Assembly: GCA_965116885.1 (NCBI GenBank)
Contig: OZ220741.1
Span: 3,232,001-3,296,000 of the forward strand
Direction of reading: 5' to 3'
Length of the DNA stretch: 64,000 bases
DNA from: Candidatus Latescibacterota bacterium
GTDB lineage: Bacteria; Latescibacterota; UBA2968
Shown here: piece by piece, positions 5,140 through 27,599 of the stretch
How the letters are laid out: each line of letters opens with the position of its first letter
How positions within the stretch are numbered: the stretch's first letter is position 1
The notes under the pieces: model-generated
The model's input: only the letters and a program-made list of their open reading frames with translations
The model's database searches: none
Told to the model about the DNA's origin: nothing
Position numbers and translations under genes: made by a program

Positions 5140-5142
5140 TAT

Positions 5143-7247: not shown

Positions 7248-7312
7248 GCGCGCGCTGGCTCCGGGGTCGTGTGGTTCGTACCTCGGTAGATTTGAGATGA
7301 AAGAGAGGCAAT

Positions 7313-8662: not shown

Positions 8663-8676
8663 CAAAGGGGATTCAT

Positions 8677-10149: not shown

Positions 10150-10228
10150 AAGGTGAGTTTATTCGCAGAAAACGCAATTCGATTTTGTGGGAGTTAAGCG
10201 GAATAGCCTGAGGCGGTAATTATCTTTC

Positions 10229-11065: not shown

Positions 11066-11077
11066 AAGGAATTCTCT

Positions 11078-12415: not shown

Positions 12416-12417
12416 AT

Positions 12418-12819
12418 ATGGATGCACGTAAAACTGTACACGCCTATTTTGACGCGCTTACTGCGGGAGACGCCCGGCGGTTGATCGGTCTTATGTCTCG
12501 CGTGCCTTATTATGTCAAAATAGGTACAGATGAAAACGAATATATCCAGGGTGGTGAAAATATACCCGGGTACTATCGTCACCATGTGGATAGTACAGAG
12601 GATTTCGCCATTACATGCGATTATCTCGATGTTCAAGAGCGCGAGGCAGTTGCATGGTTTTACACACGTCAGACCTGGAAGCTCAAATGGCAGGGCCAGC
12701 GCGAAGAACTGTCTATGCGTTTGACGGGTGTTCTCGAAAAAGAAGATGATCAGTGGAGATTTGTTCAGATCCACGCTTCACTCGGTGTACCTGAATCAGG
12801 AGATATACACGATGGATGA
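12418..12819 (+). CDS. SnoaL/NTF2-like family protein
   Basis: 133 aa; IGTD and RLTGVLEK...WRFVQIHAS are typical of SnoaL-like domains. Confidence 0.8.
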   Translation: MDARKTVHAYFDALTAGDARRLIGLMSRVPYYVKIGTDENEYIQGGENIPGYYRHHVDSTEDFAITCDYLDVQEREAVAWFYTRQTWKLKWQGQREELSMRLTGVLEKEDDQWRFVQIHASLGVPESGDIHDG

Positions 12820-14035
12820 ACTCGCCATTAACGGTGGAGAAAAGGCCAAGACCGTTCCGTACAATCAACCAAATAAATACACCGATGAAGAGCGCGAATT
12901 GTTGCTCGAGGTTCTCGATTCGGGTAAACTGATGGGGCCGGATGGGAAAGTCGCGGATTTTGAAGCTGAGATATGTCGCGCATTCGATGTTAAGCACGCG
13001 ATTATGGTGACATCTGGCACGGTTGCACTGCAAACGGCTCTTGCCGCGCTGGGTGTGTCTGAAGGCGATGAGGTTATTACTACGCCTATGACGGATTTTG
13101 GCACGACTGCGGCCATTCTCGCGCTGCACGCCATTCCGATTTTTTCTGATATCGATTTGTCAACCCGCTTGCTCGATCCGCAAAAGGTGCGCGAGAAAAT
13201 TACGGATAAGACCAGAGTTATTATTGCCGTCCACATGGCCGGTATGCCGTGTGAGATGGATGCGTTTTTGGATATCAGTGAGGAAACAGGGGTTAAAATT
13301 CTCGAAGATTGCGCGCAGGCACACGGCGCGACTTATCGCGGTCGTTTTGTCGGTGCGATTGGACACGCCGCGGGATTTTCCATGAATGAATCCAAGCAAA
13401 TTTCCACTGGCGATGGCGGTTTTGTCACGACCAATGACGATGAGACCGCTGAAATCGCCCGTCTTTTCCGCGATAAAACCTATTTGCGGGGTCAGAAACT
13501 CGAACGCGGTGTGCAACCCATTCCTTTCTTTGGCACGAATTTGCGTCCGACCTGCTTGCAAGCCGCTGTCGCTATTGCGCAACTCCACAAGCTCGAGTAT
13601 CTCGTTGCCCGCCGCGACCAGATTGTTCGGCGATACTATGACGAACTCGGCGATCTGCCCCATCTCGATTTTCCGAAAATTGCCGATCAAGCCCACCCTT
13701 CGTGGTGGCCCCTTGCCATTCGCTATACGGGTAGCACGCCAACGCGAGATGAACTCGTCGATGTTTTTCGCGCCGAGGGCGTTTCCATCAATACGAGCAT
13801 GTCCGCGGTGAAAAATATCCTCCGTACGGAAGTGATTCAAAAACGCAAGTACTATCCTTTAACGGACGATATTCCGATATTCTGGCAAAATACTGCGTAC
13901 AATCCCGATGATTGCCCCAATGTCGATACCTTGCAAGCCACTTGCTTGCGTCTTCCCGTGAATGAACGCTATACCGACGAGGATATCGATCAGACGATCG
14001 CGGCGGTGAAAAAGGTTTGGGCGCACTATTTTTAG
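12812..14035 (+). CDS. DegT/DnrJ/EryC1/StrS PLP-dependent aminotransferase
   Basis: LAINGG, SGTVAL, GDEVI, EDCAQAHGA and FSMNESK..STGDGG motifs; AGGAG RBS. Confidence 0.92.
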   Translation: MDELAINGGEKAKTVPYNQPNKYTDEERELLLEVLDSGKLMGPDGKVADFEAEICRAFDVKHAIMVTSGTVALQTALAALGVSEGDEVITTPMTDFGTTAAILALHAIPIFSDIDLSTRLLDPQKVREKITDKTRVIIAVHMAGMPCEMDAFLDISEETGVKILEDCAQAHGATYRGRFVGAIGHAAGFSMNESKQISTGDGGFVTTNDDETAEIARLFRDKTYLRGQKLERGVQPIPFFGTNLRPTCLQAAVAIAQLHKLEYLVARRDQIVRRYYDELGDLPHLDFPKIADQAHPSWWPLAIRYTGSTPTRDELVDVFRAEGVSINTSMSAVKNILRTEVIQKRKYYPLTDDIPIFWQNTAYNPDDCPNVDTLQATCLRLPVNERYTDEDIDQTIAAVKKVWAHYF

Positions 14036-14119
14036 ATAGCGTTGTTTGTTGTCTTGACCAATCATCTATAACTGAGTAAATTGTCCATCGCAAATCCACA
14101 ATAACCGGTAAAGCTAATC

Positions 14120-14941
14120 ATGACCTTAGATATCGAATCCGGTATTCGCCGTCCCAAAATTGACATGCACTGCCACATCTGGCTTATGGATGGGTGGGAG
14201 CAGTCCGCTGATCAGCTCGTCGCTTCGGGCGATATGCTCGGCATTACCGAATACTGGTGTTCTTCCATTATCCAGCAGGGCATTCTGGCACCTGTTGAGG
14301 ATGTGTATCCTCACAATGATACTATTCTGAGCGCAATGGCACGCCATCCCAAACGCGTTCGCGGCTGGTGTTTTGTCATTCCCGGTCATTTTCAAGACGC
14401 CATAGACGAAGCCGAGCGATGTCTTGATGCGGGCATGATTGGCATTAAGCTCTATAATCAGTACCGCATCAACGATCCGGTTTTGCACCCTATTCTCGAA
14501 TTGGCGAGCGAACGGCGCGTGCCCATTCTTCAGCACGCGGGATACCCCGTTCCCGAACACCGCGCAAGCCAGCCGCTCATTTCACACGGTATTCATTTTA
14601 GCGAGGCCAGTGAAAAATATCCCGATGCGATTCTCATTCACGCCCATATCGGAGGCGGAGGTGATTGGGAACACACGGTGCGCGAAATGCGCCAGGCGTC
14701 TCCCAATGTTTATATCGATGTGTCGGGTAGCAACCTGGACGATGGACAGGTCGAATACGCGGTTTCAGAACTCGGCGTCGAGCGCGTGCTTTTTGGCACC
14801 GATGGCACGATGGCCGGCTCGGTGGGCAAAGTTCTCGATGCAGATCTCACTGAGGATGAACGCGAACACATTTTTTGGACCAATGCCGAGCGCATTCTCG
14901 CGCAACAGGGGGCTACGCCTACAGAACCTCGTACCAATTAA
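14120..14941 (+). CDS. Amidohydrolase_2 family metal-dependent hydrolase
   Basis: IDMHCH, GIKL, QHAG, AHIGG and RVLFGTD motifs. Confidence 0.88.
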   Translation: MTLDIESGIRRPKIDMHCHIWLMDGWEQSADQLVASGDMLGITEYWCSSIIQQGILAPVEDVYPHNDTILSAMARHPKRVRGWCFVIPGHFQDAIDEAERCLDAGMIGIKLYNQYRINDPVLHPILELASERRVPILQHAGYPVPEHRASQPLISHGIHFSEASEKYPDAILIHAHIGGGGDWEHTVREMRQASPNVYIDVSGSNLDDGQVEYAVSELGVERVLFGTDGTMAGSVGKVLDADLTEDEREHIFWTNAERILAQQGATPTEPRTN

Positions 14942-14957
14942 AGGAAGAAAACATCAA

Positions 14958-15755
14958 ATGCTCATAGATGTAAATGCTTGGCTTGGCACATGGCCTTTTC
15001 GTTCATTGCGCGACAATACACCCGATGCGCTTATCACGCGCCTTGACCGGTCGGGTATTGACAAAGCTGTTGTCTCTTATATCGAAGCCGCATTTCACAG
15101 GCATCCGCAATCGGCGAATGAACGGCTTGCCCGCGATGTTGAACCACACGGCGACCGCCTTATTCCGGTTGGTACAATTAATCCTCTGTCGCCGCATTGG
15201 GAAGATGACCTGACATCTTGTATTGATCTCGGTATGAAGGGAATTCGCCTTTTTCCGCAATATCACAATTACCAGACCGATGGGGCTGAGAGCCGAAGCG
15301 TCGTTCAAGCATGCGCTCAGTGCAATTTTCCGGTCTTTATTCCGCACAGACTCGAAGATACTCGGCAGCATCACTGGATGGATCCGGGCCAGAGTATCGA
15401 CCTATCACAACTCGCCAATCTGGTCGCGGCTGTGCCCGATGCCGCGATTATTATACCGAATGCCCGTCCGCTCGCGCGGTCACCGCTCTGGATGCGAGAG
15501 GATCTGCGCGATTTGAACTGGTACTTCGATCTTTCGCTGGCAGAAATTCACTATGGTCTGCACAAAAGTACCAATGCGATGAAGGATCTGGGATATTTGA
15601 TTGAGGAAGGCGGTGCGGGTCATATTCTCTTTGGTACGCATTTGCCCTTTTCCTATGCTGGCCCAGCCCTCGTCAAGCTCGCTATTCTACCCGTCGATGA
15701 AGAGACGCTCGAAGATATTAAACATCGCACTGCTACTAAGCTTCTGAATCTTTAG
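14958..15755 (+). CDS. Amidohydrolase_2 family protein with degenerate metal ligands
   Basis: IDVNAWLG in place of DxHxH, GIRLFPQYH and ILFGTH.P. ATG at 14958 follows AAGGAAG. Confidence 0.8.
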   Translation: MLIDVNAWLGTWPFRSLRDNTPDALITRLDRSGIDKAVVSYIEAAFHRHPQSANERLARDVEPHGDRLIPVGTINPLSPHWEDDLTSCIDLGMKGIRLFPQYHNYQTDGAESRSVVQACAQCNFPVFIPHRLEDTRQHHWMDPGQSIDLSQLANLVAAVPDAAIIIPNARPLARSPLWMREDLRDLNWYFDLSLAEIHYGLHKSTNAMKDLGYLIEEGGAGHILFGTHLPFSYAGPALVKLAILPVDEETLEDIKHRTATKLLNL

Positions 15756-15800
15756 ATACGAAGCCTTTCTCCAGCCTGAATCATCAAAATAGTGCAAACA

Positions 15801-15837
15801 AAACGCCCCTGTTTCATTAGCAGAAACAGGGGCGTTT
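15801..15837. terminator. Bidirectional intrinsic terminator between convergent genes
   Basis: Perfect 15-bp stem: AAACGCCCCTGTTTC-attagca-GAAACAGGGGCGTTT. Confidence 0.85.
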
Positions 15838-15861
15838 GAGTTGGTATTAATGGTGGTTTAA

Positions 15862-17472
15862 TTACACTTCACGACACGGCTTTCGCACGATGACGAGGTT
15901 GAGGGTGGGATCCTGAAGAGCGTCTCGGAAGACAGCGCGCATCTGGTCGTCGGTATCTTGTTCATGGACTTCGCGGACTCGTGACGCTCCGCATGCAAGG
16001 GCGAGGTCGCGCATGGTGACTTGCGGTCCGGCTTCGCCGTTTATTTGAACGCCCTGGTCGGGAGTGGTTTGTCCGCCAGTGGTGAGCGAGCCGCCATTGT
16101 CGAGTACCATAACAATGGGTGTCGCACCTGTGGCGCGCGCATGGACGAGGGCATTGATGCCGCCGTGATAAAAGGCGGAGTCGCCACATATCGCAATGGT
16201 GCGTTCGGCAATATCCGTTTTGCTCAGGCCACAGGCCACGCCAATGGCGGATCCCATCGAGAGTTTGGTATCGAGCATGGGAGCGGCCATTACCACGCAT
16301 CCCGGGTCGGCAGATATAAAGGGATTTTGGCCGAGGGCATTGGCTTCTTCGCGTAGTGCAGTAAGGATTTCCGTGAAGGGGCAGCCAGCGCAGTGGTTTT
16401 TGCGAAAGGGTTTTTCGCTTTCCCAATTTTCTTCGGTATAGCGCGTGGTTGGCGAGAAACCCGGGAGATAGTCGTCGAGTGCGTTTTGTATGTGCCAGCG
16501 GAAGAGTTCACCCACGCTGGTGAGATGTCCCGTGCGTTTGCCCAGGATTGGCGGGGTAACACCGGCGTCGTAACCAATGGCTTTGATGGCGTCTTCGATG
16601 TATGGATCGACTTCTTCAACGACGAGTACTTCACTACATTTTGCGAGAAAGTCTGCGATGAGTTTTTGGGGTAGGGGATACAGGGCACTGAGTTTGAGGA
16701 TGGAGAGATCAGATGTGTCTGCTCCATCGAGCGCGTCGAGGAGTTTGGTGTGCACCATGCCACAGGCGATGATGCCTTTTTGTCCATTGCCATCTATGCG
16801 ATTGAAGGGCAGGTCGCTAAATTGTGCGGTGGCGCGTGCGATTTTTTCGTGTAATTCTGTGTGGTTGCCTTCGGTTGTGCGAAGTGCCGATATCCAGCTC
16901 ATTGGCTCGCGGTCGGGTTCGCGGGTGGGGTGTTGCGCTGCGGGGCGGAAGTCGGAAAGGGCTTGCGTGCTGGTGCTGTAACTTCTGGTCAGGCGCAATA
17001 TCACGATGGATTGCAGGCTTTCTGAGTATTCAAAAGCCCATTTTATCATGTCGCGGCCTTCCCCTGGCGTGGCGGGTTCGAGCATTGGCAGTTCGGCCAG
17101 GGGACCGAGGGTGCGTGTATCTTGTTCGTTTTGCGATCCCCAGGCGCCGGGGTCATCGCCCATGACAATGACGAGTCCGGCGTGTACACCGGTCATGTTG
17201 AGCACCATCAGGGTGTCGAGCGCGACGTTCATACCCACGCTCTTGAGACATACGAGCGCGCGCTTGCCGCCCTGTGATGCACCGGCAGCCATATCCAGGG
17301 CAATGCGTTCATTGATACACCATTCGGCGTGGTGTCCGTGGTCTTTGGCCATTTCGGCCATGGCGTTAAATGTGTTTGTGCCGGGTGAACCGGGATACCC
17401 GGTTACAACGCCGACGCCTGCTTCTACTGCGCCCCAGGCCAGGGCGCGTTCTCCGTCAATGGTTTGGGTCAT
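15862..17472 (-). CDS. iorA: Indolepyruvate:ferredoxin oxidoreductase alpha-subunit-like TPP enzyme, lacking the C-terminal ferredoxin domain
   Basis: GYPGSP, NERIAL, K.VGMNVALD, DDPG..SQNEQD, CAGCP, GDSAFYHGG and DN...TGGQ motifs; ends RKPCREV. Confidence 0.85.
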   Translation of the reverse strand: MTQTIDGERALAWGAVEAGVGVVTGYPGSPGTNTFNAMAEMAKDHGHHAEWCINERIALDMAAGASQGGKRALVCLKSVGMNVALDTLMVLNMTGVHAGLVIVMGDDPGAWGSQNEQDTRTLGPLAELPMLEPATPGEGRDMIKWAFEYSESLQSIVILRLTRSYSTSTQALSDFRPAAQHPTREPDREPMSWISALRTTEGNHTELHEKIARATAQFSDLPFNRIDGNGQKGIIACGMVHTKLLDALDGADTSDLSILKLSALYPLPQKLIADFLAKCSEVLVVEEVDPYIEDAIKAIGYDAGVTPPILGKRTGHLTSVGELFRWHIQNALDDYLPGFSPTTRYTEENWESEKPFRKNHCAGCPFTEILTALREEANALGQNPFISADPGCVVMAAPMLDTKLSMGSAIGVACGLSKTDIAERTIAICGDSAFYHGGINALVHARATGATPIVMVLDNGGSLTTGGQTTPDQGVQINGEAGPQVTMRDLALACGASRVREVHEQDTDDQMRAVFRDALQDPTLNLVIVRKPCREV

Positions 17473-17514
17473 TTTTGTACTCCTGAATGAAAAATCGGGG
17501 ATAGCATTGGAAAT

Positions 17515-17543
17515 ATTAAACTGTGTGTGGGCGTATTTGTCAA
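17515..17543 (-). promoter_or_regulatory. Sigma70-type promoter of iorA
   Basis: TTGACA-17 nt-TTTAAT on the minus strand. Confidence 0.6.
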
Positions 17544-17575
17544 GTAGAGAAGGGGTTGTACGGCGATGGGTAAAA

Positions 17576-18955
17576 TCAAATAAATCCAATTATACGCCAG
17601 TATAACAGGGTCAGCGGTAGCAGCGCGATGAGTGTTATCAAAGAAATCAGCGACATTACGAGTACGAATTGGCCCATTCGGGCATAGCGAAAGCTGTACG
17701 CGACAATAAATGGTGCGCCCTGATAGGGGATGAAAACCACGCCTGTGCCAATTGCCAGGCTGAGGGCGATGGATAGGGGCGACAGGCCGAATTGGGGACC
17801 GAGGTCGAGCAGAAAGGGCGCGAGTACGCCGCCAACCGCAGCGGTATCCATTAAGAAATCAAATGGCACTGCCAGACAAGCTATAAGGGCGAGTTGGGCA
17901 ATGGGGGTTTCGACTGTTTGGAGATGGGGTATGAATACGGACGCGAGGGCGCGGTTGAGGCCAGATTGTTCGAGGGCGTGACCAATGGCAAAAACCGCGG
18001 AGATGAATATGAGAAGGGGAAAATTGACTTTTTTGATGGTGTCAAAGGGCAAGGGACCCCAGCCGGGCAGGTAGCAGAGGAGGACGAGGCCCAGGCCGAT
18101 ATAGACCGGGTGAATGCCGTGTATAACATCGGTCGTCCACAGGAGAACACCTGCGATGAGAATACCGAGTACTTTTTTTTCAGGATCGGTCATGTGGGCG
18201 GGAACATCGGCGATAGCGGAATGGCCCGAGAGGTCGGGTTCCCGCGAGGGGCGAAATAGCAAGCGGATAAGGCCGTAGAGCAGGCCAACGCGCAGGAGGC
18301 CAATGATTGGAAAGAGATAATAGGCCCATTCGCTCCAATAGACTGTGATATCGCGCGATTCGAGTACGCCGAGAATGACCAGGTTGGGCACGCCAGCCGT
18401 CAGTATGCCCGTGCCGCTGTAATACGTAGCGCAGGTCAGAGAGAGGACGAGAGCAGCACTGACTTTTGAGTTGGGGGCTTCGCCGAGGGTTTTGAGCAGA
18501 GAGACGACCATCGGCATCAAGATGAGGACGCGCACGACGCCAGAGGGGATCAGCAGTGCCATTGTGAGGCCCAGGATGTGCAGGCCAAATACGAGTTGTC
18601 GATATCCACTCAGGCGACCGAGTACGCTTTGGGCCATTCGCGCTCCCAGCGGTGTTTCGGTAATGCCCAGGCTCAATGCCATTCCGGCAAAGACCAGCCA
18701 GACGGCTTTGCCAGAGAAGCCTTGAAAAGTGGTTTCAAAGGATAGGATTTTGAGAAGCGGAAAGAGTGTGAGGATGAAGATGGCGGTGTAGGATATGGGG
18801 ATGGGTTCAAAGGTCCAAAAAATAACAGTGAGCGCGGTGAGGGCGAGCGCCATGCGAGCAGATATGCCGAGGTCACTGGGGAAGAGAAAAATAAATAGTG
18901 CCAGCGCGGGACCGAGGATGAGGCCAATGATTTGAGATCGGGTCATATTGGTCAT
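17576..18955 (-). CDS. SLC13/DASS family anion permease
   Basis: About 12 TM helices; WTFEPIP, PSGVVR, TAGVPN and PYQGAP motifs. Confidence 0.85.
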   Translation of the reverse strand: MTNMTRSQIIGLILGPALALFIFLFPSDLGISARMALALTALTVIFWTFEPIPISYTAIFILTLFPLLKILSFETTFQGFSGKAVWLVFAGMALSLGITETPLGARMAQSVLGRLSGYRQLVFGLHILGLTMALLIPSGVVRVLILMPMVVSLLKTLGEAPNSKVSAALVLSLTCATYYSGTGILTAGVPNLVILGVLESRDITVYWSEWAYYLFPIIGLLRVGLLYGLIRLLFRPSREPDLSGHSAIADVPAHMTDPEKKVLGILIAGVLLWTTDVIHGIHPVYIGLGLVLLCYLPGWGPLPFDTIKKVNFPLLIFISAVFAIGHALEQSGLNRALASVFIPHLQTVETPIAQLALIACLAVPFDFLMDTAAVGGVLAPFLLDLGPQFGLSPLSIALSLAIGTGVVFIPYQGAPFIVAYSFRYARMGQFVLVMSLISLITLIALLPLTLLYWRIIGFI

Positions 18956-19086
18956 TTATTTTTTGAGATGTGCATGCAAGATAAGAGGGTATGAGGTGAT
19001 GGACAAATGAATTGTGGGCAGATGGATTCGCTATTGATTAAGTACAAGAAATCGCGTAGTTTAGCGCGGAGAAAGGAGATAAGACT

Positions 19087-20256
19087 ATGAATTTTAGAGG
19101 CAAATTGGTTGATACGTCGCAGGTTGTGACCGTGCAAACAGATGGCGAGCAGATCGCGGCTATTCATCGTGGGGAGGCGGGAGATGCGATTGGTGGAGAC
19201 GATGTGTGGATCGCGCCGGCGATTTTTGATGTGCAGGTCAATGGTGTGGGTGGGATCAACTATAAAGCCAAAGATTTGACGGTGGAGAAAATTGTGGAGA
19301 CGGCGGCGTGGATGCACAGGACGGGTACGGGTTTGTGGTGTCCCACGGTGACGACTTCGTCTGAGGAAGATGCGGTTCACGGTCTGGCGCTGTTGGCAAA
19401 GGCATGCGAGGAATCAGAAGTCTCGCGCGCGTCTTTTGTTGGGTTTCACGTTGAGGGACCTTATATCGCGTCTGAAGATGGTCCCCGCGGGGCGCACCCT
19501 CTGGCGCATGTGCGCGATCCAGACTGGGATGAATTTCAGCGGTATCAAGAAGCGGCTGGTGGGCGTATTGCTATTTTTACGCTTGCGCCTGAGAGAGACG
19601 GTGCATTGGAATTTATTGAGAAGGTGGCAGCGACGGGTGTTATTGTTTCAATTGGTCATTCGGGCGCGAGTCCCGAGCGCATTCAGGAGGCGGTTGCTGC
19701 CGGTGCCCAGATGTCAACCCATCTGGGCAATGGCGCGCATGCCGAGTTGCCGCGTCATCCCAATTATATATGGGAACAACTCGCGGCAGATGCGTTGTGG
19801 GCAGGGATTATTCCCGACGGGTTTCACCTGCCGCCTGCGGTGTTGAAGAGTTTTTATCGCGCAAAAGGCAAAGAACGCCTGTGTCTGGTGAGCGATGTGG
19901 CATCTATCGCTGGTTTGCCGCCGGGTATTTACGGCAGCGAGAGCGGGTTGGGACAGAGCGAGTTGCACACCAATGGCAAAATTTCTCTGGCGGGAACGCC
20001 TTATCTGGCGGGTGCGGGTTTGTTTTTGGACAGTGGCATTCCCAATGCCGTGCGGTTTACAGACGCTTCGCTGTCCGATGCCATTGAAATGACGTCGATT
20101 AATCCGGCGCGTTTGTTGGGGATAGAAGATCGCGTGGGGTCTGTGGAAGTCGGCAAAGAGGCGAGTCTATCTCTGTTCCGCTGGGAAGAAGAGCAGGAGA
20201 AATTGGATGTGGTGGCAACGGTGGTGCGGGGGCGGGTTGTTTATCAGGCTGGATAA
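19087..20256 (+). CDS. nagA: N-acetylglucosamine-6-phosphate deacetylase family protein
   Basis: DVQVNG, HVEGPYI, GAH, TLAPE, GHS, THLGNG, DGFH and NPA motifs. Confidence 0.85.
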   Translation: MNFRGKLVDTSQVVTVQTDGEQIAAIHRGEAGDAIGGDDVWIAPAIFDVQVNGVGGINYKAKDLTVEKIVETAAWMHRTGTGLWCPTVTTSSEEDAVHGLALLAKACEESEVSRASFVGFHVEGPYIASEDGPRGAHPLAHVRDPDWDEFQRYQEAAGGRIAIFTLAPERDGALEFIEKVAATGVIVSIGHSGASPERIQEAVAAGAQMSTHLGNGAHAELPRHPNYIWEQLAADALWAGIIPDGFHLPPAVLKSFYRAKGKERLCLVSDVASIAGLPPGIYGSESGLGQSELHTNGKISLAGTPYLAGAGLFLDSGIPNAVRFTDASLSDAIEMTSINPARLLGIEDRVGSVEVGKEASLSLFRWEEEQEKLDVVATVVRGRVVYQAG

Positions 20257-20267
20257 AGGAATGCGAT

Positions 20268-21125
20268 ATGGCGAAGAAAAAGGTTGTTCTAACAGGTGCA
20301 TCGGGCTATGTGGCGGGGCGGATGTTGCCCGCATTGCGCGAGAGGTACGATCTGACGTTGTTGGATGTGAAGACGACCAACCGCGAGGGCGATAAAGTTG
20401 AAGGCGTGCAAGTTGTGGATTTGATAAACCCGGATCGGGATGCATATCGCGCCCATTTTCGAGGTGCTGATGCCGTGGTACACAGCGGGTTTAAGGGGAC
20501 CGTAGATTGGAGTCATACGGATTATTGGAAGGAGTCCGATAATATTCGGATGTGCTACAATGTGTACCAGACGTGTGTCGAAGAAGGTGTGAAACGCATT
20601 GTGGTGATGAGTTCGAATCACGCATGCGATTTTTACGAGCGGTTGATCTGGTCTGACCGATTGGATTTTGCTACGACCGATATGCTGCCCCTGTCCGACA
20701 ATTTTTACGGTTGGGCAAAGTCGTCGTACGAACATCTGGCTTTTGTGTTTGCAACGGGCAATGCGACCAATGGCAAGCGGTTGGAGAGTGTTCACATTCG
20801 CATTGGCGCGCCCCGAGACACCATTATGGAAGGGCAGTCGGCGGATGATTTAAAGCAGTTGCACCGGGAATTGGGCGCGTATTTGAGTGCGCGAGATTTG
20901 TCGCAATTGGTGATCAAGAGTATTGAGACCGAGAATATTGAAGATGAAAATGGGGTGCCGTTTCAGGTGTTTTTTGGCATTAGTGGGAATACGCACCGGT
21001 TCTGGAATATCGACAATGCAAGGCGCGTTGTGGGATACGCGCCAGAGGATGATAGTCAGATTCGGTTTGCGGGGGAGATTGCGGAGATTATTCAAAAGGC
21101 ACAAAGAAGACAGCGAATAATTTGA
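20268..21125 (+). CDS. NAD-dependent epimerase/dehydratase family (uronate dehydrogenase-like)
   Basis: TGASGYVA, SSNHA, YGWAK, RIG and GISGN...W...ARRVVGYAPED motifs. Confidence 0.8.
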   Translation: MAKKKVVLTGASGYVAGRMLPALRERYDLTLLDVKTTNREGDKVEGVQVVDLINPDRDAYRAHFRGADAVVHSGFKGTVDWSHTDYWKESDNIRMCYNVYQTCVEEGVKRIVVMSSNHACDFYERLIWSDRLDFATTDMLPLSDNFYGWAKSSYEHLAFVFATGNATNGKRLESVHIRIGAPRDTIMEGQSADDLKQLHRELGAYLSARDLSQLVIKSIETENIEDENGVPFQVFFGISGNTHRFWNIDNARRVVGYAPEDDSQIRFAGEIAEIIQKAQRRQRII

Positions 21126-21132
21126 GCTGTCT

Positions 21133-21245
21133 CACAGATGAACACAGATGAACACCGATAAAGAGGGTACAACGTTGGATAATGATCACTCATTTTCGGA
21201 AGGATAAAGATGTAACCATCTGTGTCTATCGGCGTTTATCTGTGG
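21133..21245. repeat. Inverted-repeat element built of 10-bp CACAGATRAA units
   Basis: Left arm CACAGATGAA-CACAGATGAA-CACCGATAAA; right arm ATCTGTGTCT-ATCGGCGTTT-ATCTGTGG. Confidence 0.8.
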
Positions 21246-21262
21246 TTCCAAAAGGTTTTGTC

Positions 21263-22387
21263 ATGAAAATTACAGGATTTGAGACGATTCCCATTCGGGG
21301 TCGGGCGATGATTTTGAAGATGTTTACGGATGAAGGATTGGTGGGGTATGGCGAGCCGATGAATTACGAGCATTGGCGCGTGGTGGCGCAGGCTGTAGAG
21401 GATATGGCCGAGTACCTGGTGGGGAAAGATCCGCTGAATATTGAGGATCACTGGCAGGCGATGTATCGCTCGAGTTATAGCCGGAGTATGCCGGTGCTGG
21501 TCGGTGCGCTGAGTGGGATTGAGATGGCGATGTGGGATGTGTTTGGCAAGATGGTGGGGTTGCCGGTCTGGAAACTTTTGGGTGGGAAAGTTCGCGATCG
21601 CATTCGCGTGTACACTGGGACGGGTGGGACGACGCCAGAGGAATGTGCGGAGAATGCGAGCCAGAAGGTGGCAGAGGGCTTTCGCGCAGTGAAGATGGGG
21701 GCTTCGCCGAGTCCTGTGCGATTTGTCGATACGCCAGAGAAAATAGATTTTATGGTTTCGCGCGTTGCTGCGGTGCGCGAAGCTGTGGGATATTCGGTCG
21801 ATATTGCAGTGGATTTGCATCGGCGGTTGAGTCCGACGATGGCTGCGATTCTGGTGAAGGAGTTGGAGCCGCTGCGTCCTCTGTTTGCAGAGGAGCCGTG
21901 TCATCCGGAAAATAACGAGGCGTTATTGGCGCTGTCCCGGGGTACAACTGTACCTATTGCCACGGGCGAACGGCATTTGACGCGCTGGGGATTCCGCGAA
22001 CTCATAGAGCGAGAGATGTGCGCGATTTTGCAACCGGATATTCGCCATTGTGGGGGTATGTCGGAATTGAAAAAGATCGCGGGGATGGCAGAGATTCACA
22101 ATATGGCGATTGCGCCGCACAATGCGGCCGGGCCTGTGGGGGTGGCAGCGTCGGTGCATGTGATGGCGACGATTCCAAATTTGTTGATTTGCGAGGGTGG
22201 TCATAACCGTGGTGAAGGCTTGTTTAAGATGCCTCTAATTTTTCGAGATGGTTTTATTGAATTGCCAACTGAGCCGGGTTTGGGTGTGGATATGGACGAT
22301 GATGCGCTCGAGGCTTTGCGCGATGAATCACATCGCCTGCGCGGGATGTTCTGGCATGAAGATGACGGATCTTTTGCGGATTATTAA
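21263..22387 (+). CDS. dgoD: Galactonate dehydratase-like enolase family protein (second paralog)
   Basis: GYGE, SGIEMAMWD, DLH, EEP, ATGER, QPD and PGLG motifs; C-terminal DGSFADY. Confidence 0.78.
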   Translation: MKITGFETIPIRGRAMILKMFTDEGLVGYGEPMNYEHWRVVAQAVEDMAEYLVGKDPLNIEDHWQAMYRSSYSRSMPVLVGALSGIEMAMWDVFGKMVGLPVWKLLGGKVRDRIRVYTGTGGTTPEECAENASQKVAEGFRAVKMGASPSPVRFVDTPEKIDFMVSRVAAVREAVGYSVDIAVDLHRRLSPTMAAILVKELEPLRPLFAEEPCHPENNEALLALSRGTTVPIATGERHLTRWGFRELIEREMCAILQPDIRHCGGMSELKKIAGMAEIHNMAIAPHNAAGPVGVAASVHVMATIPNLLICEGGHNRGEGLFKMPLIFRDGFIELPTEPGLGVDMDDDALEALRDESHRLRGMFWHEDDGSFADY

Positions 22388-22390: not shown

Positions 22391-22425
22391 GAATTAAAAA
22401 TTGAGAATTAGGAATTAAGAATTAA
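22391..22425. repeat. Heptamer tandem repeat (consensus GAATTAA) x5
   Basis: gaattaa aaattga gaattag gaattaa gaattaa; a related run lies at 54984-55004. Confidence 0.75.
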
Positions 22426-22499
22426 GGATCGGGAGCGGGGCAGGCTGCACGCCACAGCACCAGCAATCATGAAAATCCCGATTCAGATGGGGGTGTAAG

Positions 22500-23720
22500 T
22501 TGCTTTTCGACTCTCGCTTTTTCTCCGTGTTTATCGGTGTTCATCTGTGGTTGCTTTTGCTGTTTGCAAGCGGTTATGTGGAGGCTATAGAGAGAGTGGC
22601 TCTCAGGCGGGAATACAACGATGTGTCCGCCGCTGTAGATAGTCTCGTGCGGGTGATGCAGGTGGCAGATGCCGAGGTGTTGAAGAAACTGCCGGAAGCG
22701 CGTCCCGATCGCATGCTGCCCGAGGGAATGACGGCTGTGATGATTTTTTGGGCAGATGACGAAGCGCGGGTTTGGCTCAATGATTTTCCCGTGGGTGAGA
22801 CCCGGTTGACACCCGTGGAAGTGACTGTTCCAGATTTGTATTTTCAAGGGCAAAATCGCCTGCGCGTGCGGTGTTGGGATACGGATAGGGTGGAGAGTGG
22901 TTTTTTGGGTGGTTTGTACTTGAAAGATGGTGTTGGAAGGTTGTACCCTATTGTGGTTTCCAATGGGACATGGGAGACCTCAGGAGGACGGGCAACGGAA
23001 ATTATTTATGCCCATCCGATGCCAGATATTCCCGGTGCACAACCGATTTGGGGCATGCGCATGTTTGGATTTGTAGATATGGCTATCACTTTTGACCGGG
23101 GTGCGATTGATCGCGCGCTTGCAAAAAGCGCATCCACAAGGCCAATGGCTGCGCGGCAACAGGCAATGGATTATCACACCTTTGCTCAGCAACTCGCTAT
23201 TTTGCAGGCTCGAAGAGAAAAGTTAAGAGCAGATTTAGCGCGTCAGGGCGACCTGAGCGTGCCGCTTTACAATCGGGAACGCGCCCGTTCTGCATCGCTG
23301 TCACTGGGGAAGGCTGCGCCTTTGACCGAAAAGGTGTCGGCACCGGTGGCAGAAAATGTGCGGTCCTGGTCGGAGAAGTTACCGGCGGTGCAGCAGCAGT
23401 TGATTTATCCAGACCGCCGCGCGTTAAAAGGAGAAGGTGCTGTAACTGCGACCACGGGTGATGCGGTTTCCACTGCGACCGACCGCGGCAGTCGCGAGCA
23501 GGCGTATCGCCCTCCTGAAGAACGCGGTGGGATGAAAAGTGAAACAAAAGATGAGGGTGTCAATGCCCAGGTGCAGCCGCAGGGAATGAGACGCGGTGGT
23601 GGGGGTGGACAATCGAGTCAGGCCACGCGATTGGGATTGTTGTTGCCCACGCTGATAGTGGGAATTTATGTGTTGTATGTGGCCATACGCTGGCAATCGT
23701 TAATGGGAGAAAATGATTGA
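22500..23720 (+). CDS. Hypothetical exported protein: jelly-roll (galactose-binding-like) domain, linker and C-terminal TM anchor
   Basis: Hydrophobic N-terminus; ADDEARVWLN...GQNRLRV...GFLGGL...IVVSNGTW pattern; GGGGG followed by a TM helix at the C-terminus. Confidence 0.6.
   Translation: MLFDSRFFSVFIGVHLWLLLLFASGYVEAIERVALRREYNDVSAAVDSLVRVMQVADAEVLKKLPEARPDRMLPEGMTAVMIFWADDEARVWLNDFPVGETRLTPVEVTVPDLYFQGQNRLRVRCWDTDRVESGFLGGLYLKDGVGRLYPIVVSNGTWETSGGRATEIIYAHPMPDIPGAQPIWGMRMFGFVDMAITFDRGAIDRALAKSASTRPMAARQQAMDYHTFAQQLAILQARREKLRADLARQGDLSVPLYNRERARSASLSLGKAAPLTEKVSAPVAENVRSWSEKLPAVQQQLIYPDRRALKGEGAVTATTGDAVSTATDRGSREQAYRPPEERGGMKSETKDEGVNAQVQPQGMRRGGGGGQSSQATRLGLLLPTLIVGIYVLYVAIRWQSLMGEND
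22524..22552. repeat. Solo arm of the 10-bp CACAGAT repeat family inside the 5' end of ORF 22500
   Basis: TCCGTGTTTATCGGTGTTCATCTGTGGTT is close to the reverse complement of 21133-21162. Confidence 0.75.
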
Positions 23721-24472
23721 TGTACGGATTACACTGGTCTGAATTGTTGTCGTTGGTTCTTTTTTGGGTGGTGTGTGCGATAGCAGGTGCATTGATTTTG
23801 ATGCAACGCTTAAGTGCTACTTGTCGTTACGAAAAACAATTTGGCCTGCCGGAGTCCAATTGGCCTGGTGCGATAATAGGTGGATTGGGCGGTGCTGGCA
23901 TGGCGGGTATTGGTATTTATTTTTATTTTTTTGCGCCAGCAGCCTCGGGTTGGGTCGAGTGGACGGGGCGTTCGGCTTATGTACTCGTTTTGGGCAGTTC
24001 GGCAGCGCATCTGGTCGCGTTTATTCATTTTTGGCGGCGATTGGGGGCAGAAGGTGCGGATACAGGTAATTTGACTGCATTGCGACAGGAACAGGTGGCT
24101 GAATTTCGCCAGAGCCGCGAGAATTATGCGGACTTAAAAGCGCGCGATGACGAGGCAGTAGATGAGTTACTCGCTGTGTTTGGCGAGCGGTTGTTGTCCG
24201 GGCAGCGCGCTTTGAGTCGCATTCCGTTTTATGGGTATTTGGGGACTGTGTGCGGTATTTTGCTGATGGCCGAAGAACTGACCCGACTGGATGAAGCGAC
24301 CGAGACGTTTAAGGTGTTGCGCGATATGGCTGGTGGATTGGTGCTGGCATTTCAGACAACGCTCGTCGCCTTGCTGGCCTATCTGCCGCTTCGAAAGGGC
24401 TATGATATGTTGCTGAATAGGATGTCTGATCTGGAACGCAAATGGTTGGATATGCGCGAAGGGGGGAAATGA
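23720..24472 (+). CDS. Divergent MotA/TolQ/ExbB proton-channel family protein
   Basis: PFYGYLGTVCGI...GLVLAFQTTLVAL helical hairpin, three N-terminal TM helices, TGATG overlap with the upstream gene. Confidence 0.8.
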   Translation: MYGLHWSELLSLVLFWVVCAIAGALILMQRLSATCRYEKQFGLPESNWPGAIIGGLGGAGMAGIGIYFYFFAPAASGWVEWTGRSAYVLVLGSSAAHLVAFIHFWRRLGAEGADTGNLTALRQEQVAEFRQSRENYADLKARDDEAVDELLAVFGERLLSGQRALSRIPFYGYLGTVCGILLMAEELTRLDEATETFKVLRDMAGGLVLAFQTTLVALLAYLPLRKGYDMLLNRMSDLERKWLDMREGGK

Positions 24473-24897
24473 GCGTGAAGCGACGTTTTTTACAGCGCGC
24501 GGTGGCCGAAGCCGAAGCGCACGATGTGAGCAAAGAGTTGTTTTTGGGTATCATGATGCTGATGCTGTGCCTGGGGATTATGATTTTGAATGTGTCGCAG
24601 CCCGTGTGGCGCGTTTACCACCACGATCCCGAACCAGGAGATGTGGTGATTTTATATACTTCCAGAGGTCTGTCGTTTTCGGAAGATGGGCGATCTGCGA
24701 CACGCAGTTTGGGGCCGAACGAGTTTCGCAAAACAGTAAATGATCTGGTTGCGGAACCCGATCGTAATTTGCATCTGTTTCTGAAGGGGGGCAGCCGAGA
24801 GCGCATGGTGAATGACGCGGCTTATGCGGATTCTCTTTTGTCTGTTGGTACAGCGGGCCAAAAGGTGCGCCCCGCCGTATATGTGCATCTGTGGTAA
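24469..24897 (+). CDS. Divergent ExbD/TolR-like single-TM protein
   Basis: Basic N-terminus KRR, then SKELFLGIMMLMLCL TM, then a small periplasmic alpha/beta domain; ATGA overlap with the MotA-like gene. Confidence 0.6.
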   Translation: MSVKRRFLQRAVAEAEAHDVSKELFLGIMMLMLCLGIMILNVSQPVWRVYHHDPEPGDVVILYTSRGLSFSEDGRSATRSLGPNEFRKTVNDLVAEPDRNLHLFLKGGSRERMVNDAAYADSLLSVGTAGQKVRPAVYVHLW

Positions 24898-24920: not shown

Positions 24921-24953
24921 AACAACCCCGGTAGTAGTATCACCGGGGTTGTT
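24921..24953. terminator. Hairpin terminator between convergent operons
   Basis: AACAACCCCGGT-agtagtatc-ACCGGGGTTGTT followed by TATTTT. Confidence 0.75.
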
Positions 24954-25500
24954 TATTTTGTTTATCGCGTTCATCTTTGTACTTCCGCATAAAATACTCA
25001 AAAGAAGTATTCTTAGTCGATGCCGTTTTTCGATCAAACAACTTCATGATCTCTTGCATAAAATCTATTCTTGAGTCGAATCTCTCTGGCATCATACGGT
25101 CAAACTGTTCTTTTGAAATACGATCTGTTTTGTTGAAGCGTCGCCGTATTTTAATTTTACGGCGAGAATCATCATTTAGACCTGCGAGATACCAGCTTTC
25201 TATTTCCCGACACACGACCAAAATTCGATCCTCAGATAGCTTCTCAAACTGGGATGTAATCCGCTCTTTCCTATCTGTTACACACGGAGAATCGTCCATG
25301 TCCGCTACAAAAATATAATCGGCGTGCGGTATAGAATTGATACTATTCAGAAAACCATTTACTTTTTTTAATTTTTGCTGACTATACTTCCAATGCTGAA
25401 CATAATCATAAATATGTTCATATATGGGTCTGATTAAGTGATCAAAGAATCGCTCATCGTCGTCTCCTTCTACGAGAATAAAGAGCCTCCGATACGCCAA
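24940..25500 (-). CDS. TOPRIM/DUF4276-like putative nuclease
   Basis: ILVEGDDD, ADMD and EIESWYLAG motifs; TTG start with GGAGGT RBS. Confidence 0.7.
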   Translation of the reverse strand: MAYRRLFILVEGDDDERFFDHLIRPIYEHIYDYVQHWKYSQQKLKKVNGFLNSINSIPHADYIFVADMDDSPCVTDRKERITSQFEKLSEDRILVVCREIESWYLAGLNDDSRRKIKIRRRFNKTDRISKEQFDRMMPERFDSRIDFMQEIMKLFDRKTASTKNTSFEYFMRKYKDERDKQNKQPR

Positions 25501-25501
25501 T

Positions 25502-26734
25502 CTATACCTCCAACAAGTTCTGGATAAATAGATCTTCAATGCCTATTTCATTTTTCAAGAAAACCTTGATTGCATCACTATCCTCTGGCTTTATTATTTT
25601 GGAAAATCCTTCATCGTCTCTCGTTATGAGCAAGATATTCTCCAAATCCGCGTGTTTAACCATTTCTGGATTATGAGTTGTTGCCAGTATCTGCCTATTT
25701 TTTGATGCCTCTCTGAACATATCCATCACTCTTGAGATTAAATAAGGATGGACATTCCTTTCAGGTTCTTCTATAATGACTGCCTGTTTCTGTTCGAAGT
25801 AAAGCGCGATAATTAAAGCGATAACATTGACAGTGCCATCAGAAATCAAAGAGGCTGGTAGCCCTTCCTTTTTAGCATACTTTTCACGTAGCCTAAAGAA
25901 TATGGATTTATCTACTACCCTTTCCACATTTATATCGTGAATGAATGGCAGGATATCCCGAAATAAATTGAGAAATCTTCGTCTATCTTCTTCTATCCTC
26001 AGGATATTGTTCAGTACTATGGTGAGATTGCTACCATCCATCTCCAATTCTGAGAGACCTGTGATGGGTACAGGTCTCTTGGATAATTTGGGTTCAAAGT
26101 CATAGATACCGATATTTCTAAATCCATTCAAAGCTGATTTTAGGAACACACCAGCAAAAGGTGACTCAATCAAGAGTGGTATTTCATTATACAAAGGCGG
26201 TTCCTTGGTAATTAACAGATCTTCCAAGAATGGAGGTATATCCATATCGGGATTATTTAAGTCTATATTTAGTTTGCCATTAAGACTGGAATATTTGATG
26301 TTAAATTTTTTCGAATTATTGATTTTTTTTTCTTCATAACAGCTCAATGTTATTTTGTCTTGATCAATAGTATATCCAAATTTTCGTGTATGGAATTTTA
26401 AAGAAAACTCATAGTCTATTTTACGAATTTTGAATGAGGGAGATTCGTGATGGTGTCCAAGCCAAAACCCCTCGGATTCGCCCTGCATAACTACGCGAAA
26501 CGAAAGGGGCCGGGAATGCGCAATCCTTATATTCCATAGATACTCTATACCCCCCTGAAGCGAAATTGCATTTTCCAATCCGTGAATAACAATATCTCTC
26601 AAAAATTGGAAGGCTTGAACGAGATTAGATTTTCCCGAGGCATTCGCTCCAACCAGTAAGTTGAAGTCGTTCAAGTGAATAGATTGATTATCGAAACTCT
26701 TAAAGTTTGATATTTCAATTTTTGTAATTTTCAT
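25502..26734 (-). CDS. AAA_21/SMC-like ABC-type ATPase
   Basis: ISNFKSF, Walker A GANASGKS, signature ISDGT, Walker B IIEEPE and TTH; AT-rich. Confidence 0.88.
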   Translation of the reverse strand: MKITKIEISNFKSFDNQSIHLNDFNLLVGANASGKSNLVQAFQFLRDIVIHGLENAISLQGGIEYLWNIRIAHSRPLSFRVVMQGESEGFWLGHHHESPSFKIRKIDYEFSLKFHTRKFGYTIDQDKITLSCYEEKKINNSKKFNIKYSSLNGKLNIDLNNPDMDIPPFLEDLLITKEPPLYNEIPLLIESPFAGVFLKSALNGFRNIGIYDFEPKLSKRPVPITGLSELEMDGSNLTIVLNNILRIEEDRRRFLNLFRDILPFIHDINVERVVDKSIFFRLREKYAKKEGLPASLISDGTVNVIALIIALYFEQKQAVIIEEPERNVHPYLISRVMDMFREASKNRQILATTHNPEMVKHADLENILLITRDDEGFSKIIKPEDSDAIKVFLKNEIGIEDLFIQNLLEV

Positions 26735-26828
26735 GTTGGCAGCCTTGTAAGAATAGGCTTGACCTCTTTTACCATCAGGACCTTGTCCCGATCCACGAAA
26801 AAGATTCCCACAGAGATATTTCGCCCGC

Positions 26829-27599
26829 CTATTGAACACTGCTTTTTAGAGTGCGGGCGAATAGGTCGAGGACCGCATCCCAGGATTTTTCGGCGGCTTC
26901 CGCGTGGTAGTGTGTTAAACGCTGGGGGAAGAAATAGCCGTGTAGCGCACCGTGCATAAAGTCAATGCGATGTGGGACGTCACAGCGGGTGAGTTCGGTT
27001 TTGTAGAGTTGTAAGTGTTCTTCGGTTGCGCCGGCATCCCGGTCTGCCCAGCCAAAGTAGCCTTCGGCTCTGAGTTTGGGAATGGCGAGATGGGGCGAGT
27101 CTGTTGCATCCGTGACGAGTTTGCCGCCGTGAATGGAGGCAAAGGCCAAAACGTGATCGGGATACGTTGCCGCTGCAAAGAGGGCGTGGCGACCGCCCAT
27201 GCATGTGCCGATAGTGCCGACCCGTTGGGCATCGGCTTGAGGTTCTTCGTTGTCGAGGTGGCGAAGCAGGGCACCCGTGTCCTCAACGACCATGGCATTG
27301 GTTGTGCTGGTGTTGAGGTTCATCGGGTGCAGGGGGTCCGTTTTTTCGAGATTGAGATCGCCGCGCATAAATTTTTCGGGGTTGTAAGACGGATTCCCCA
27401 TGCGATAAAATAGGGAGGGGAGTACGGTGTAATATCCCGCGCGAGCAAAACGACGGCACATGTTTTTTATTTCGTCGCGAATGCCAAATATGTCAAAGTA
27501 GAAGATGACAGCGGGATGCGGTCCTTCGCCTTCTGGATGAAAGACACAGGTGGGCATTATACCGTCTGAAGTAGTAACTTCAATGGTTTTTTCGATCAT
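26829..27599 (-). CDS. Dienelactone hydrolase family protein
   Basis: DIFGIR, GTCMGG nucleophile elbow, HGG, SPH and HGY motifs. Confidence 0.9.
   Translation of the reverse strand: MIEKTIEVTTSDGIMPTCVFHPEGEGPHPAVIFYFDIFGIRDEIKNMCRRFARAGYYTVLPSLFYRMGNPSYNPEKFMRGDLNLEKTDPLHPMNLNTSTTNAMVVEDTGALLRHLDNEEPQADAQRVGTIGTCMGGRHALFAAATYPDHVLAFASIHGGKLVTDATDSPHLAIPKLRAEGYFGWADRDAGATEEHLQLYKTELTRCDVPHRIDFMHGALHGYFFPQRLTHYHAEAAEKSWDAVLDLFARTLKSSVQ

Follow-up and report, generated by a model that had tools for sequence, protein, structure and literature searches.

The window analysed here, the whole 64,000-nt stretch of contig OZ220741.1 (assembly GCA_965116885.1) of a Candidatus Latescibacterota bacterium, contains three consecutive genes on the plus strand, g1, g2 and g3, which raise the question of whether an ion-driven motor of the ExbB/ExbD and TolQ/TolR kind can be dedicated to a partner other than TonB or TolA. 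The original prediction, made from the sequence alone, described the trio as a translationally coupled module in which an anchored jelly-roll protein is combined with a highly divergent motor pair, with no adjacent TonB. The results presented below are best compatible, at a probability of roughly 0.55, with the trio being a lineage-specific, Ton/Tol-like 5:2 motor of Latescibacterota and their close relatives that has its own dedicated transducer, g1. A TolQ-like subunit, a small protein with a single transmembrane (TM) segment and an anchored periplasmic protein are inherited together and translationally coupled. Structural models lend weak support to a TolR/ExbD-like fold of g3 and support its binding to g1; the 5:2 stoichiometry and ion coupling through a glutamate of g3, Glu23, are what we infer.

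A conserved and coupled gene trio

The locus comprises three open reading frames (ORFs) and a hairpin:

22500 to 23720, plus strand: g1, TTG start, 406 aa, putative periplasmic partner protein without a Pfam or NCBIfam family
23720 to 24472, plus strand: g2, ATG start, 250 aa, MotA/TolQ/ExbB-family A subunit with about five TM segments
24469 to 24897, plus strand: g3, ATG start, 142 aa, B-subunit-like protein without a Pfam family
24921 to 24953, no strand: hairpin with a 13-bp stem that includes 7 G-C pairs, T-rich on either side including the plus-strand tail, located between convergent genes

The stop codon of g1 and the start codon of g2 share the sequence TGATG (23718-23722), and the stop of g2 and the start of g3 share ATGA (24469-24472); both overlaps and the closing hairpin are present exactly as the original prediction gave them. 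The hairpin is probably a bidirectional terminator serving g3 and the convergent gene. A scan for sigma-70 promoters found no plus-strand site ahead of g1, with site counts at the level of shuffled sequence. The G+C content of the window is 51.8%, and its nearest relatives are metagenome-assembled genomes of Latescibacterota.

When one genome of each species was searched with a g3 profile, tblastn confirmed 104 loci, of which 80, each of 16 kb, were retained. According to the submitter labels (hand count), 61 of these belong to Latescibacterota/Latescibacteria, 15 to Gemmatimonadota/Gemmatimonadetes/Gemmatimonadaceae and 1 to Planctomycetota, and 3 are unlabelled. In 76 of the 80 loci, tblastn identifies g1, g2 and g3 in the same order and on the same strand; the four exceptions (L024, L025, L039 and L080) are cut by contig ends, so that the trio is intact wherever the contig is long enough. 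The median identities across the loci are 43% for g1, 50% for g2 and 65% for g3. The junctions are conserved as well: g2 and g3 overlap by 4 nt in 61 of the 76 loci and by 1 nt in 5 more, and an overlap between g1 and g2 is found in 52 of the 76. Given the identical order and strand in 76 of 80 loci and the recurring gene overlaps, this arrangement is far beyond chance. When all ORFs of the 80 loci are clustered, g1, g2 and g3 are the only clusters common throughout; one further candidate neighbour, cluster 37, was rejected as only an antisense ORF that runs across g3. The C-terminus of g1 and the N-terminus of g2 show concerted divergence (29 + 36 concordant loci vs 11 discordant ones), to which no weight is given because the pattern follows phylogeny.

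None of the 15 representatives of conserved neighbour clusters that were scanned is TonB, TolA, ExbD or OmpA. In the window, no Pfam match to the TonB, OmpA or ExbD families is found in g1 or g3, and none among the 54 other ORFs (E <= 1e-5). The absence of an adjacent TonB, which had been claimed for the window, thus extends to the conserved neighbours of the related loci.

Gene 2, a divergent A subunit

The product of g2 matches PF01618 (MotA/TolQ/ExbB) with an E-value of 2.3e-6 and 27.8 bits (cut-off 22.9) over residues 164-242 only, and a PF01618 label is precomputed for most of its 239 homologues. In NCBIfam, the only matches, to tolQ (2.3e-4) and exbB, are below threshold, and the best sequence match in the PDB is TolQ, with an E-value of 0.67. 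A profile of 30 g2-family sequences (alignment A3), compared to Escherichia coli TolQ with hhalign, gives a probability of 90.5% (E 1.3e-6), with residues 169-248 of g2 aligned to residues 138-212 of TolQ. The matching region contains the channel:

24218 to 24391, plus strand: g2 residues 167-224, channel hairpin equivalent to TM2-TM3 of TolQ (hhalign and residue-by-residue alignment)

In this alignment, Thr176 corresponds to Thr145 of TolQ and Thr214 to Thr178, and both are invariant in the 30 sequences of A3; the equivalent threonines line the channel in known motors (PMC12204202, available in part). The motifs quoted in the original prediction, IPFYGYLGTVCG and AFQTT in g2, SKELFLGIMML in g3, and GGGGG followed by a C-terminal hydrophobic helix in g1, are all found. 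The hydropathy profile contains three N-terminal hydrophobic segments, 9-27 (2.79), 50-70 (1.45, weak) and 86-104 (1.66), followed by the two helices of the canonical hairpin, 167-185 and 206-224; thus, the three N-terminal TM segments that had been proposed are recovered, the middle one being weak. The distribution of lysine and arginine residues fits an N-out/C-in, ExbB-like orientation. Given the PF01618 match above the gathering score, the hhalign match to TolQ and the two invariant threonines, g2 is, by sequence criteria, a real but very divergent member of the MotA/TolQ/ExbB family with two extra N-terminal helices.

Gene 3, a B-subunit-like protein with an invariant glutamate

The protein encoded by g3 consists of a TM helix and a small globular domain:

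24520 to 24594, plus strand: g3 residues 18-42, invariant H-D-x-S-K-E followed by a single TM helix; hydropathy 2.58
24643 to 24894, plus strand: g3 residues 59-142, periplasmic alpha/beta domain with the order b-b-b-a-b-a-b, TolR/ExbD-like, predicted docking site of g1 (AlphaFold2, AF2, model and Foldseek)

Hydropathy places the TM helix at residues 24-42, and five lysine or arginine residues within positions 1-22 indicate an N-in orientation. The N-in topology with a single TM helix, the length of about 140 aa (142 aa in the window) and the position of the gene directly after that of the A subunit are as in ExbD and TolR. At the cytoplasmic end of the helix, where ExbD, TolR and MotB have the canonical aspartate, g3 has Glu23 (codon GAG, 24535-24537); ExbD Asp25, TolR Asp23 and MotB Asp32 occupy equivalent positions (bioRxiv 10.1101/2022.09.26.509584, available in part). 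In known motors, glutamate can stand in for this aspartate to some extent, as the residual activities of ExbD D25E and MotB D32E in that preprint indicate. Glu23 is present in all 24 g3-family sequences of alignment A1. Homologues of g3 number 252, and the 120 among the matches listed are 62-96% identical to the query; all 120 have Glu23 as well as the motif H-D-[VI]-S-K-E ahead of the TM helix. An invariant aspartate, Asp19, lies four residues before Glu23, outside the hydrophobic stretch.

The AF2 model of g3 (mean predicted local distance difference test, pLDDT, 80.7) consists of a long helix, residues 3-43, and a folded b-b-b-a-b-a-b domain, joined by a very short linker (residues 43-58). 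A Foldseek search of the PDB started with this model returns TolR 5by4 as the top match (E 0.13, probability 0.87, TM-score by target 0.50). The ExbD entries 8vgc, 8vgd and 8p9r rank second, fourth and 24th with probabilities of 0.82, 0.80 and 0.69 and TM-scores by target of about 0.57-0.58; the E-values of these four matches are 0.13-0.3. By sequence, g3 matches no Pfam family (including PF02472 at E <= 1), no NCBIfam family and no PADLOC model. A match to the OmpA family is likewise absent in the Pfam search from g3 and from the 24 family members, and the chain stops at residue 142, with nothing beyond its domain of about 85 residues. Thus, g3 contains neither the OmpA-like peptidoglycan-binding domain nor the plug helix of stator B subunits of the MotB/PomB type. 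The description of g3 as a protein of ExbD-type topology with glutamate in place of aspartate and without an OmpA domain is borne out by the AF2 model, the hydropathy profile and the 120 listed homologues, and the protein is probably an analogue of the B subunit, remotely homologous to ExbD and TolR.

Gene 1, an anchored lectin-like protein

A search started with g1 identifies 272 homologues at E <= 0.001. Neither Pfam, NCBIfam nor PADLOC contains a family that matches g1, and a consistent Pfam match is found in none of the 32 g1-family sequences of alignment A2 (identity down to 30%). Combined with the AF2 model (mean pLDDT 77.7), this alignment delineates five regions:

22500 to 22586, plus strand: g1 residues 1-29, signal-peptide-like, with a hydrophobic core at 7-25 (hydropathy 2.02) and V-E-A before Ile30
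22584 to 22685, plus strand: g1 residues 29-62, helix L-R-R-E-Y-N-x-V-S-A-x-I-D-S-L-V-R (A2 and AF2 model)
22731 to 23165, plus strand: g1 residues 78-222, beta-sandwich of the rhamnosidase-N/GH2-N (galactose-binding-like) type; pLDDT >= 90
23223 to 23324, plus strand: g1 residues 242-275, end of a helix and motif L-S/T-L-G-K-A-x-P-L, second segment of the predicted interface with g3
23625 to 23687, plus strand: g1 residues 376-396, C-terminal membrane anchor, hydropathy 2.37, helix in the AF2 model

The homologues in A2 have small-x-small motifs ahead of the conserved LRREYN helix, and the signal peptide of g1 is probably cleaved. Within the helix, R36, N40 and D47 are invariant, and residues 29-44 are part of the predicted interface with g3. 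The sandwich contains two invariant acidic motifs, W-A-D-D-E-A and C-W-D-T-D, both of which are present in 118 of 120 homologues among the matches listed. The one persuasive local match that Foldseek gives for the sandwich is the alpha-L-rhamnosidase 3w5m (probability 1.00, 96 columns, root-mean-square deviation 3.4, 23% identity); those to the GH2 beta-glucuronidase 4jkl (0.51) and to CBM60 (0.66) are weaker, and all E-values are at least 0.02. The language-model look-alikes of residues 66-225 in the Atlas are clusters of rhamnosidase N-terminal domains, PF21209 and PF08531, with a score of 0.89, which, being below 0.9, is a lead only; with the whole protein, the Atlas search returns nothing (best score 0.75). 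Foldseek matches of whole g1 to Fc fragments, PI3K and neurotoxin binding domains were dropped as low-probability noise, and the local matches of the sandwich were retained. The modelled sandwich may bind a glycan.

After the sandwich, g1 continues with a helix and with conserved linear motifs within disordered stretches, with a linker of about 100 residues before the anchor. Residues L269 and G270 are invariant in A2; residues 258-272 are disordered in the model of the monomer, yet lie within the predicted interface with g3. The anchor is preceded by five glycines in the clade of the window and followed by a short tail with arginine and tryptophan, and its residues L387 and Y390 are nearly invariant; a histidine or an SHLS motif is absent from it across A2. 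The N-terminal TM anchor with the SHLS/His motif that is typical of TonB and TolA (PMC12204202) has no counterpart in g1, which has the signal-like N-terminus and the anchor at 376-396, and no Pfam match to TonB_C or to the C-terminal domain of TolA is detected, the globular part being a beta-sandwich. Thus, the topology of g1 is indeed the reverse of that of TonB and TolA. The rest of the proposed architecture, namely the signal-like N-terminus, the galactose-binding-like jelly roll (at the level of the fold), the linker and the C-terminal anchor, stands as well, but the run of five glycines does not hold for the family as a whole, as it is absent in the divergent half.

The start of g1 has a peculiarity of its own. 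An ATG at 22469 opens a 9-codon ORF (22469-22498), M-K-I-P-I-Q-M-G-V-stop, which resembles the N-terminus of P0243, the closest homologue of g1, and is in a different frame from the TTG at 22500. Because this short upstream ORF matches the homologue, the start of g1 is uncertain; the difference in frame points to a small indel in the start region, with the core of the signal peptide unaffected.

The predicted g1-g3 complex and the weight of the evidence

A complex of two copies of g3 (residues 44-142) with g1 (residues 28-375) was modelled using our own alignments. It receives a score of 0.74, compared to 0.00 for the best of 3 controls, and so passes a mark that is attained by 116 of 157 solved complexes vs 2 of 215 mismatched pairs, rates that apply only roughly here because our own alignments and the two g3 copies differ from the calibration. 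The runs share at least 68% of the contacts, with a pLDDT of the partner of at least 60. The predicted interface consists of residues 29-44 (the LRREYN helix) and 242-275 of g1 and residues 47-60, 70-74, 85-99 and 123-141 of g3. This model supports, as a prediction, the binding of g1 to the periplasmic domain of g3 and gives in silico backing to the claim that g1 is the dedicated partner that a motor of this kind would have. The sandwich holds most of the invariant residues of g1, which points to a functional site of its own.

Several results pull in the opposite direction, and most of them concern g3. The Foldseek matches of its fold are weak (TM-scores of 0.39-0.57, E >= 0.13), with none in the PDB at E <= 0.001, and none of the 24 family members matches PF02472 even at E <= 10. 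Comparison of A1 with E. coli TolR by hhalign yields a probability of 0.3%, which is not significant; the sole aligned stretch pairs residues 92-124 of g3 with 98-127 of TolR, an equivalent strand-helix unit. A search of PDB sequences with the A1 profile retrieves no ExbD or TolR chain and only chance matches, AmiA at E 0.76 and GroEL at E 1. Searched against 1.84 billion representatives, the same profile finds only its own family, with 11 matches at E <= 0.001 that include a single full-length cluster, the others being fragments and, at E 5e-6, a repeat protein of 1086 aa; because this search returns essentially the family itself, g3 is isolated in sequence space. The fold of g3, on which the original prediction was staked, therefore comes out divided: the best PDB entries are those of TolR and ExbD, yet at an E-value of 0.13 and with no sequence similarity. 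In g1, the predicted interface is no richer in invariant or nearly invariant residues (7 of 40) than the remainder of the protein (56 of 308; hand count), and the score of the complex is the model's own confidence. In g2, the position of Glu173 of TolQ is occupied by Leu209, which is nearly invariant in A3; with this leucine and a glutamate as the acidic residue of the axle, ion conduction could be lost or altered.

The last point bears on the possibility that ion-driven movement has been lost and that the trio is now a static scaffold or sensor of the envelope, in which g2 and g3 would do no more than anchor and orient the lectin-like g1, for example for sensing glycans in the periplasm. This view is favoured by the replacement of Asp with Glu in g3, by the missing equivalent of TolQ Glu173 in g2 and by the very short linker that joins the TM helix of g3 to its domain. 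In addition, D-to-E changes cripple the known motors: ExbD D25E retains 5-10% activity and MotB D32E slight activity (bioRxiv 10.1101/2022.09.26.509584). Set against this are the invariance of Glu23 and of both channel threonines among the matches listed (identity down to 61% for g3 and 39% for g2), which argues for a working ion path, and the strong constraint on the entire H-D-x-S-K-E motif. We therefore regard a static scaffold as unlikely.

Alternatively, g2 and g3 could be an ordinary spare ExbBD/TolQR pair working on a TonB or TolA whose gene is elsewhere in the genome, and g1 would be a periplasmic or membrane protein that is co-transcribed but plays no part in the motor. Indeed, g2 shares its Pfam family with ExbB and TolQ, single-cell genomes of Latescibacteria are reported to encode TonB, ExbB and ExbD (PMC4454575, available in part), so that the phylum does have TonB proteins, and the loci compared here span 16 kb rather than whole genomes. 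However, g3 is unrecognisable as ExbD by any sequence method, g1 is translationally coupled and is never parted from g2-g3 in the 76 sufficiently long loci, the predicted g1-g3 complex passes where the controls give 0.00, and no tonB or tolA is found in the conserved neighbour clusters scanned. On balance, a spare pair seems quite improbable.

Proposed mechanism

If the trio is a motor with its own transducer, it could work as follows. In the inner membrane, g2 would form a channel pentamer around a g3 dimer. Glu23 of g3 would take the role of the aspartate of ExbD, TolR and MotB and cycle through protonation (or Na+ binding) against the ring formed by Thr176 and Thr214. Once its signal peptide is removed, g1 would clamp the periplasmic domain of g3 with its N-terminal helix and with the linear motif behind the sandwich, while its C-terminal helix, at the far end of the linker of about 100 residues, would keep it attached to the membrane; this helix might rest on the extra helices of g2. 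Ion flow would turn g2 relative to g3, and the movement would be handed on to g1. The resulting winding or pulling would move the sandwich, whose conserved acidic face may act on a ligand in the periplasm or envelope, possibly a glycan.

A further-reaching reading, which we put forward tentatively and with the odds against it, is that the trio is a third periplasmic force-transduction system beside Ton and Tol, a 5:2 motor defined by an axle with an obligate glutamate, a channel remodelled to match and a type-I-anchored, lectin-like transducer clamped on the axle. If this were true, polysaccharide-degrading Latescibacterota could apply ion-motive force to a periplasmic glycan or another envelope polymer without a TonB-dependent receptor.

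Neighbouring genes and other features of the window

Upstream of the trio, the neighbours are lineage-specific: a gene of the enolase superfamily, or an SDR or TPR gene. In 12 of the 80 loci, the gene immediately before g1 encodes a TPR protein of about 350 aa with a signal peptide, so that the unit comprises four genes (e.g., L062 5007-6077, L064 5027-6052 and L070 4910-5974); the copy in L062 overlaps the start of g1 by 4 nt, and the window contains no homologue. Convergent with the trio, after g3, are two TM-plus-coiled-coil genes without a Pfam family, found in 57 and 55 of the 80 loci (e.g., L035 8619-9485, L021 9524-10339 and L032 10514-11371, all on the minus strand) and located behind a sigma-70 gene. 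Neither the coiled-coil genes nor the TPR gene occur in the window or in its clade (L001-L016), and they are not part of the core.

These neighbours are the reason to consider a surface motility or secretion motor like AglRQS or GldLM in which the nearby TM/coiled-coil and TPR proteins would take part. The recurrence of the two convergent genes and the overlap of the TPR gene with the start of g1 fit such a motor, and TPR genes accompany other non-Ton motors (PMC12204202). Yet these proteins are missing from the clade of the window, and no gliding or type IX secretion system family was found among the cluster representatives and window ORFs scanned; because the coiled-coil genes are on the opposite strand behind a sigma-70 gene, shared ancestry of the gene order explains their recurrence equally well. 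A motility or secretion motor is thus a doubtful candidate, of low probability.

On the other side of the hairpin, two minus-strand genes encode a DUF4276-like protein (24943-25539) and an AAA_21 ATPase (25505-26839). They match the B component (E 1.1e-8) and the A component (E 2.2e-50), respectively, of the candidate defence system HEC-01, and MAD3 of the MADS system is matched at 6.1e-40. ZorAB is a MotAB-like motor that serves defence. This role is also mentioned in PMC12505986 (available in part), and the original prediction offered defence as one function of the trio together with this convergent ATPase-nuclease pair; the trio would then be a Zorya-type anti-phage module, a motor plus a sensor. 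The precedent and the HEC-01 match at 24943-26839 speak for it. PADLOC has no model that matches g1, g2 or g3 at E <= 1, and g2, with 250 aa, lacks a long ZorA-like tail. The HEC-01-like pair is present in 4 of the 80 loci only (L002, L007, L008 and L010), where it separates g3 from a dienelactone-hydrolase gene; in 10 other close relatives, the hydrolase gene comes immediately after g3. Because the pair is a variable insertion, the link to defence fails. Moreover, throughout the phylum the trio is found in a fixed chromosomal setting of metabolic genes, which is not typical of mobile defence islands. A defence module is accordingly very hard to credit.

The remaining observations concern the surroundings of the trio. 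The genes at 3994-22384 fit the catabolism of sugar acids and sulfated glycans, with two sulfatases, two dehydratases of the enolase superfamily, an Ldh_2 dehydrogenase, a DegT aminotransferase, amidohydrolases and a Na/sulfate-type symporter; only members of the window's clade share these surroundings. The AT-rich spacer of 112 nt between the enolase-family gene and g1 contains a tandem of the heptamer GAATTAA (22391-22426, 5.1 copies, 79% matches), an exact 16-mer of which is found again in one related locus only, L014; it may be a regulatory site or a product of slippage. Farther downstream, beside an ABC-2 transporter pair, a 151-aa ORF on the minus strand (40824-41276) aligns solely with positions 1-41 of AAA_15 and with the final 50 positions of AAA_21, and is apparently what is left of a collapsed ATPase of the OLD/AbiEii type.

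Comparison with known systems

The trio shares with TolQ-TolR-TolA and ExbB-ExbD-TonB an A subunit of PF01618 with the TM2-TM3 hairpin and two channel threonines, immediately followed, with an overlapping start, by a small single-TM protein whose periplasmic domain has its nearest, though weak, PDB matches in TolR and ExbD. A third, co-transcribed protein, periplasmic and membrane-anchored and with a long disordered linker, would according to the model sit on this domain, in a way comparable to TonB on ExbD (PDB titles of 8vgc and 8p9r). The differences are at least as pronounced. Sequence similarity of g3 to ExbD or TolR is not detectable, and its key residue is Glu rather than Asp; g2 has two extra N-terminal TM segments and a leucine at the position of TolQ Glu173. 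The gene of g1 comes first, its product has a signal peptide and a C-terminal anchor, in reversed topology and without the SHLS/His motif, and a rhamnosidase-N-like beta-sandwich replaces the C-terminal domain of TonB or TolA. No gene for TolB, Pal or a TonB-dependent receptor adjoins the trio.

ZorAB resembles g2-g3 as a MotAB-like pair outside motility, but the trio has no PADLOC match, no long ZorA tail and no ZorC, ZorD or ZorE, and its context belongs to the core genome. Comparable in composition are the "generic ion transporters" (GIT), diverse non-flagellar relatives of MotAB to which the available part of PMC12505986 assigns no function: these have an ExbB/TolQ-like A subunit with extra terminal elements and a minimal B subunit that lacks both a plug and an OmpA domain, encoded by adjoining genes. 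The main text of that paper contains no occurrence of 'Latescibacter' or of 'glutamate', and a review of 5:2 motors (PMC9389320) speaks only of a conserved aspartate, the word 'glutamate' being absent. In the literature on Latescibacteria/Latescibacterota together with ExbB, TolQ or MotA, and on families of 5:2 motors, the trio is not described in the texts proper, the scope of this search.

Only a few kinds of machine, the 5:2 ion-driven motors (Mot, Ton, Tol, Gld, Agl and Zor), convey energy from the inner membrane to the other parts of the envelope, and with each new partner a new cell function has come to light. A partner of reversed topology with a fold of the carbohydrate-binding type would, if the proposed role of g1 is true, widen the range of motor cargo. 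The natural glutamate in the axle would provide a ready test of side-chain length at the ion site, since D-to-E changes nearly kill ExbD and MotB. Given that g3 has drifted past sequence recognition, profile-based surveys may miss whole motor families. For an uncultured phylum, the trio would offer a first way into the function of a conserved system of the envelope, each functional step of which is set out here as a proposal.

A parallel for the transducer exists in the vWA-domain force transducers that have been proposed as non-TonB partners of TolQR-like motors, often together with a TPR gene (PMC12204202, the available part of which contains no occurrence of Latescibacterota). As in the trio, a globular domain that is neither TonB nor TolA is held at the inner membrane, in synteny with a motor of the TolQ/TolR type, and a TPR gene can be nearby (12 of the 80 loci here); their anchor, however, is an N-terminal TM helix with SHLS/His or an Asp-bearing pore helix, combined with the vWA fold, whereas g1 has a C-terminal anchor without the motif and a beta-sandwich. 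With non-TonB transducers already proposed, "undescribed motor class", as the original prediction put it, is an overstatement, although a new branch with two unclassified components is what the locus contains. Thus, the trio is a new family with a new architecture, a sequence-isolated branch of the known 5:2 ExbBD/TolQR kind rather than a new category of machine.

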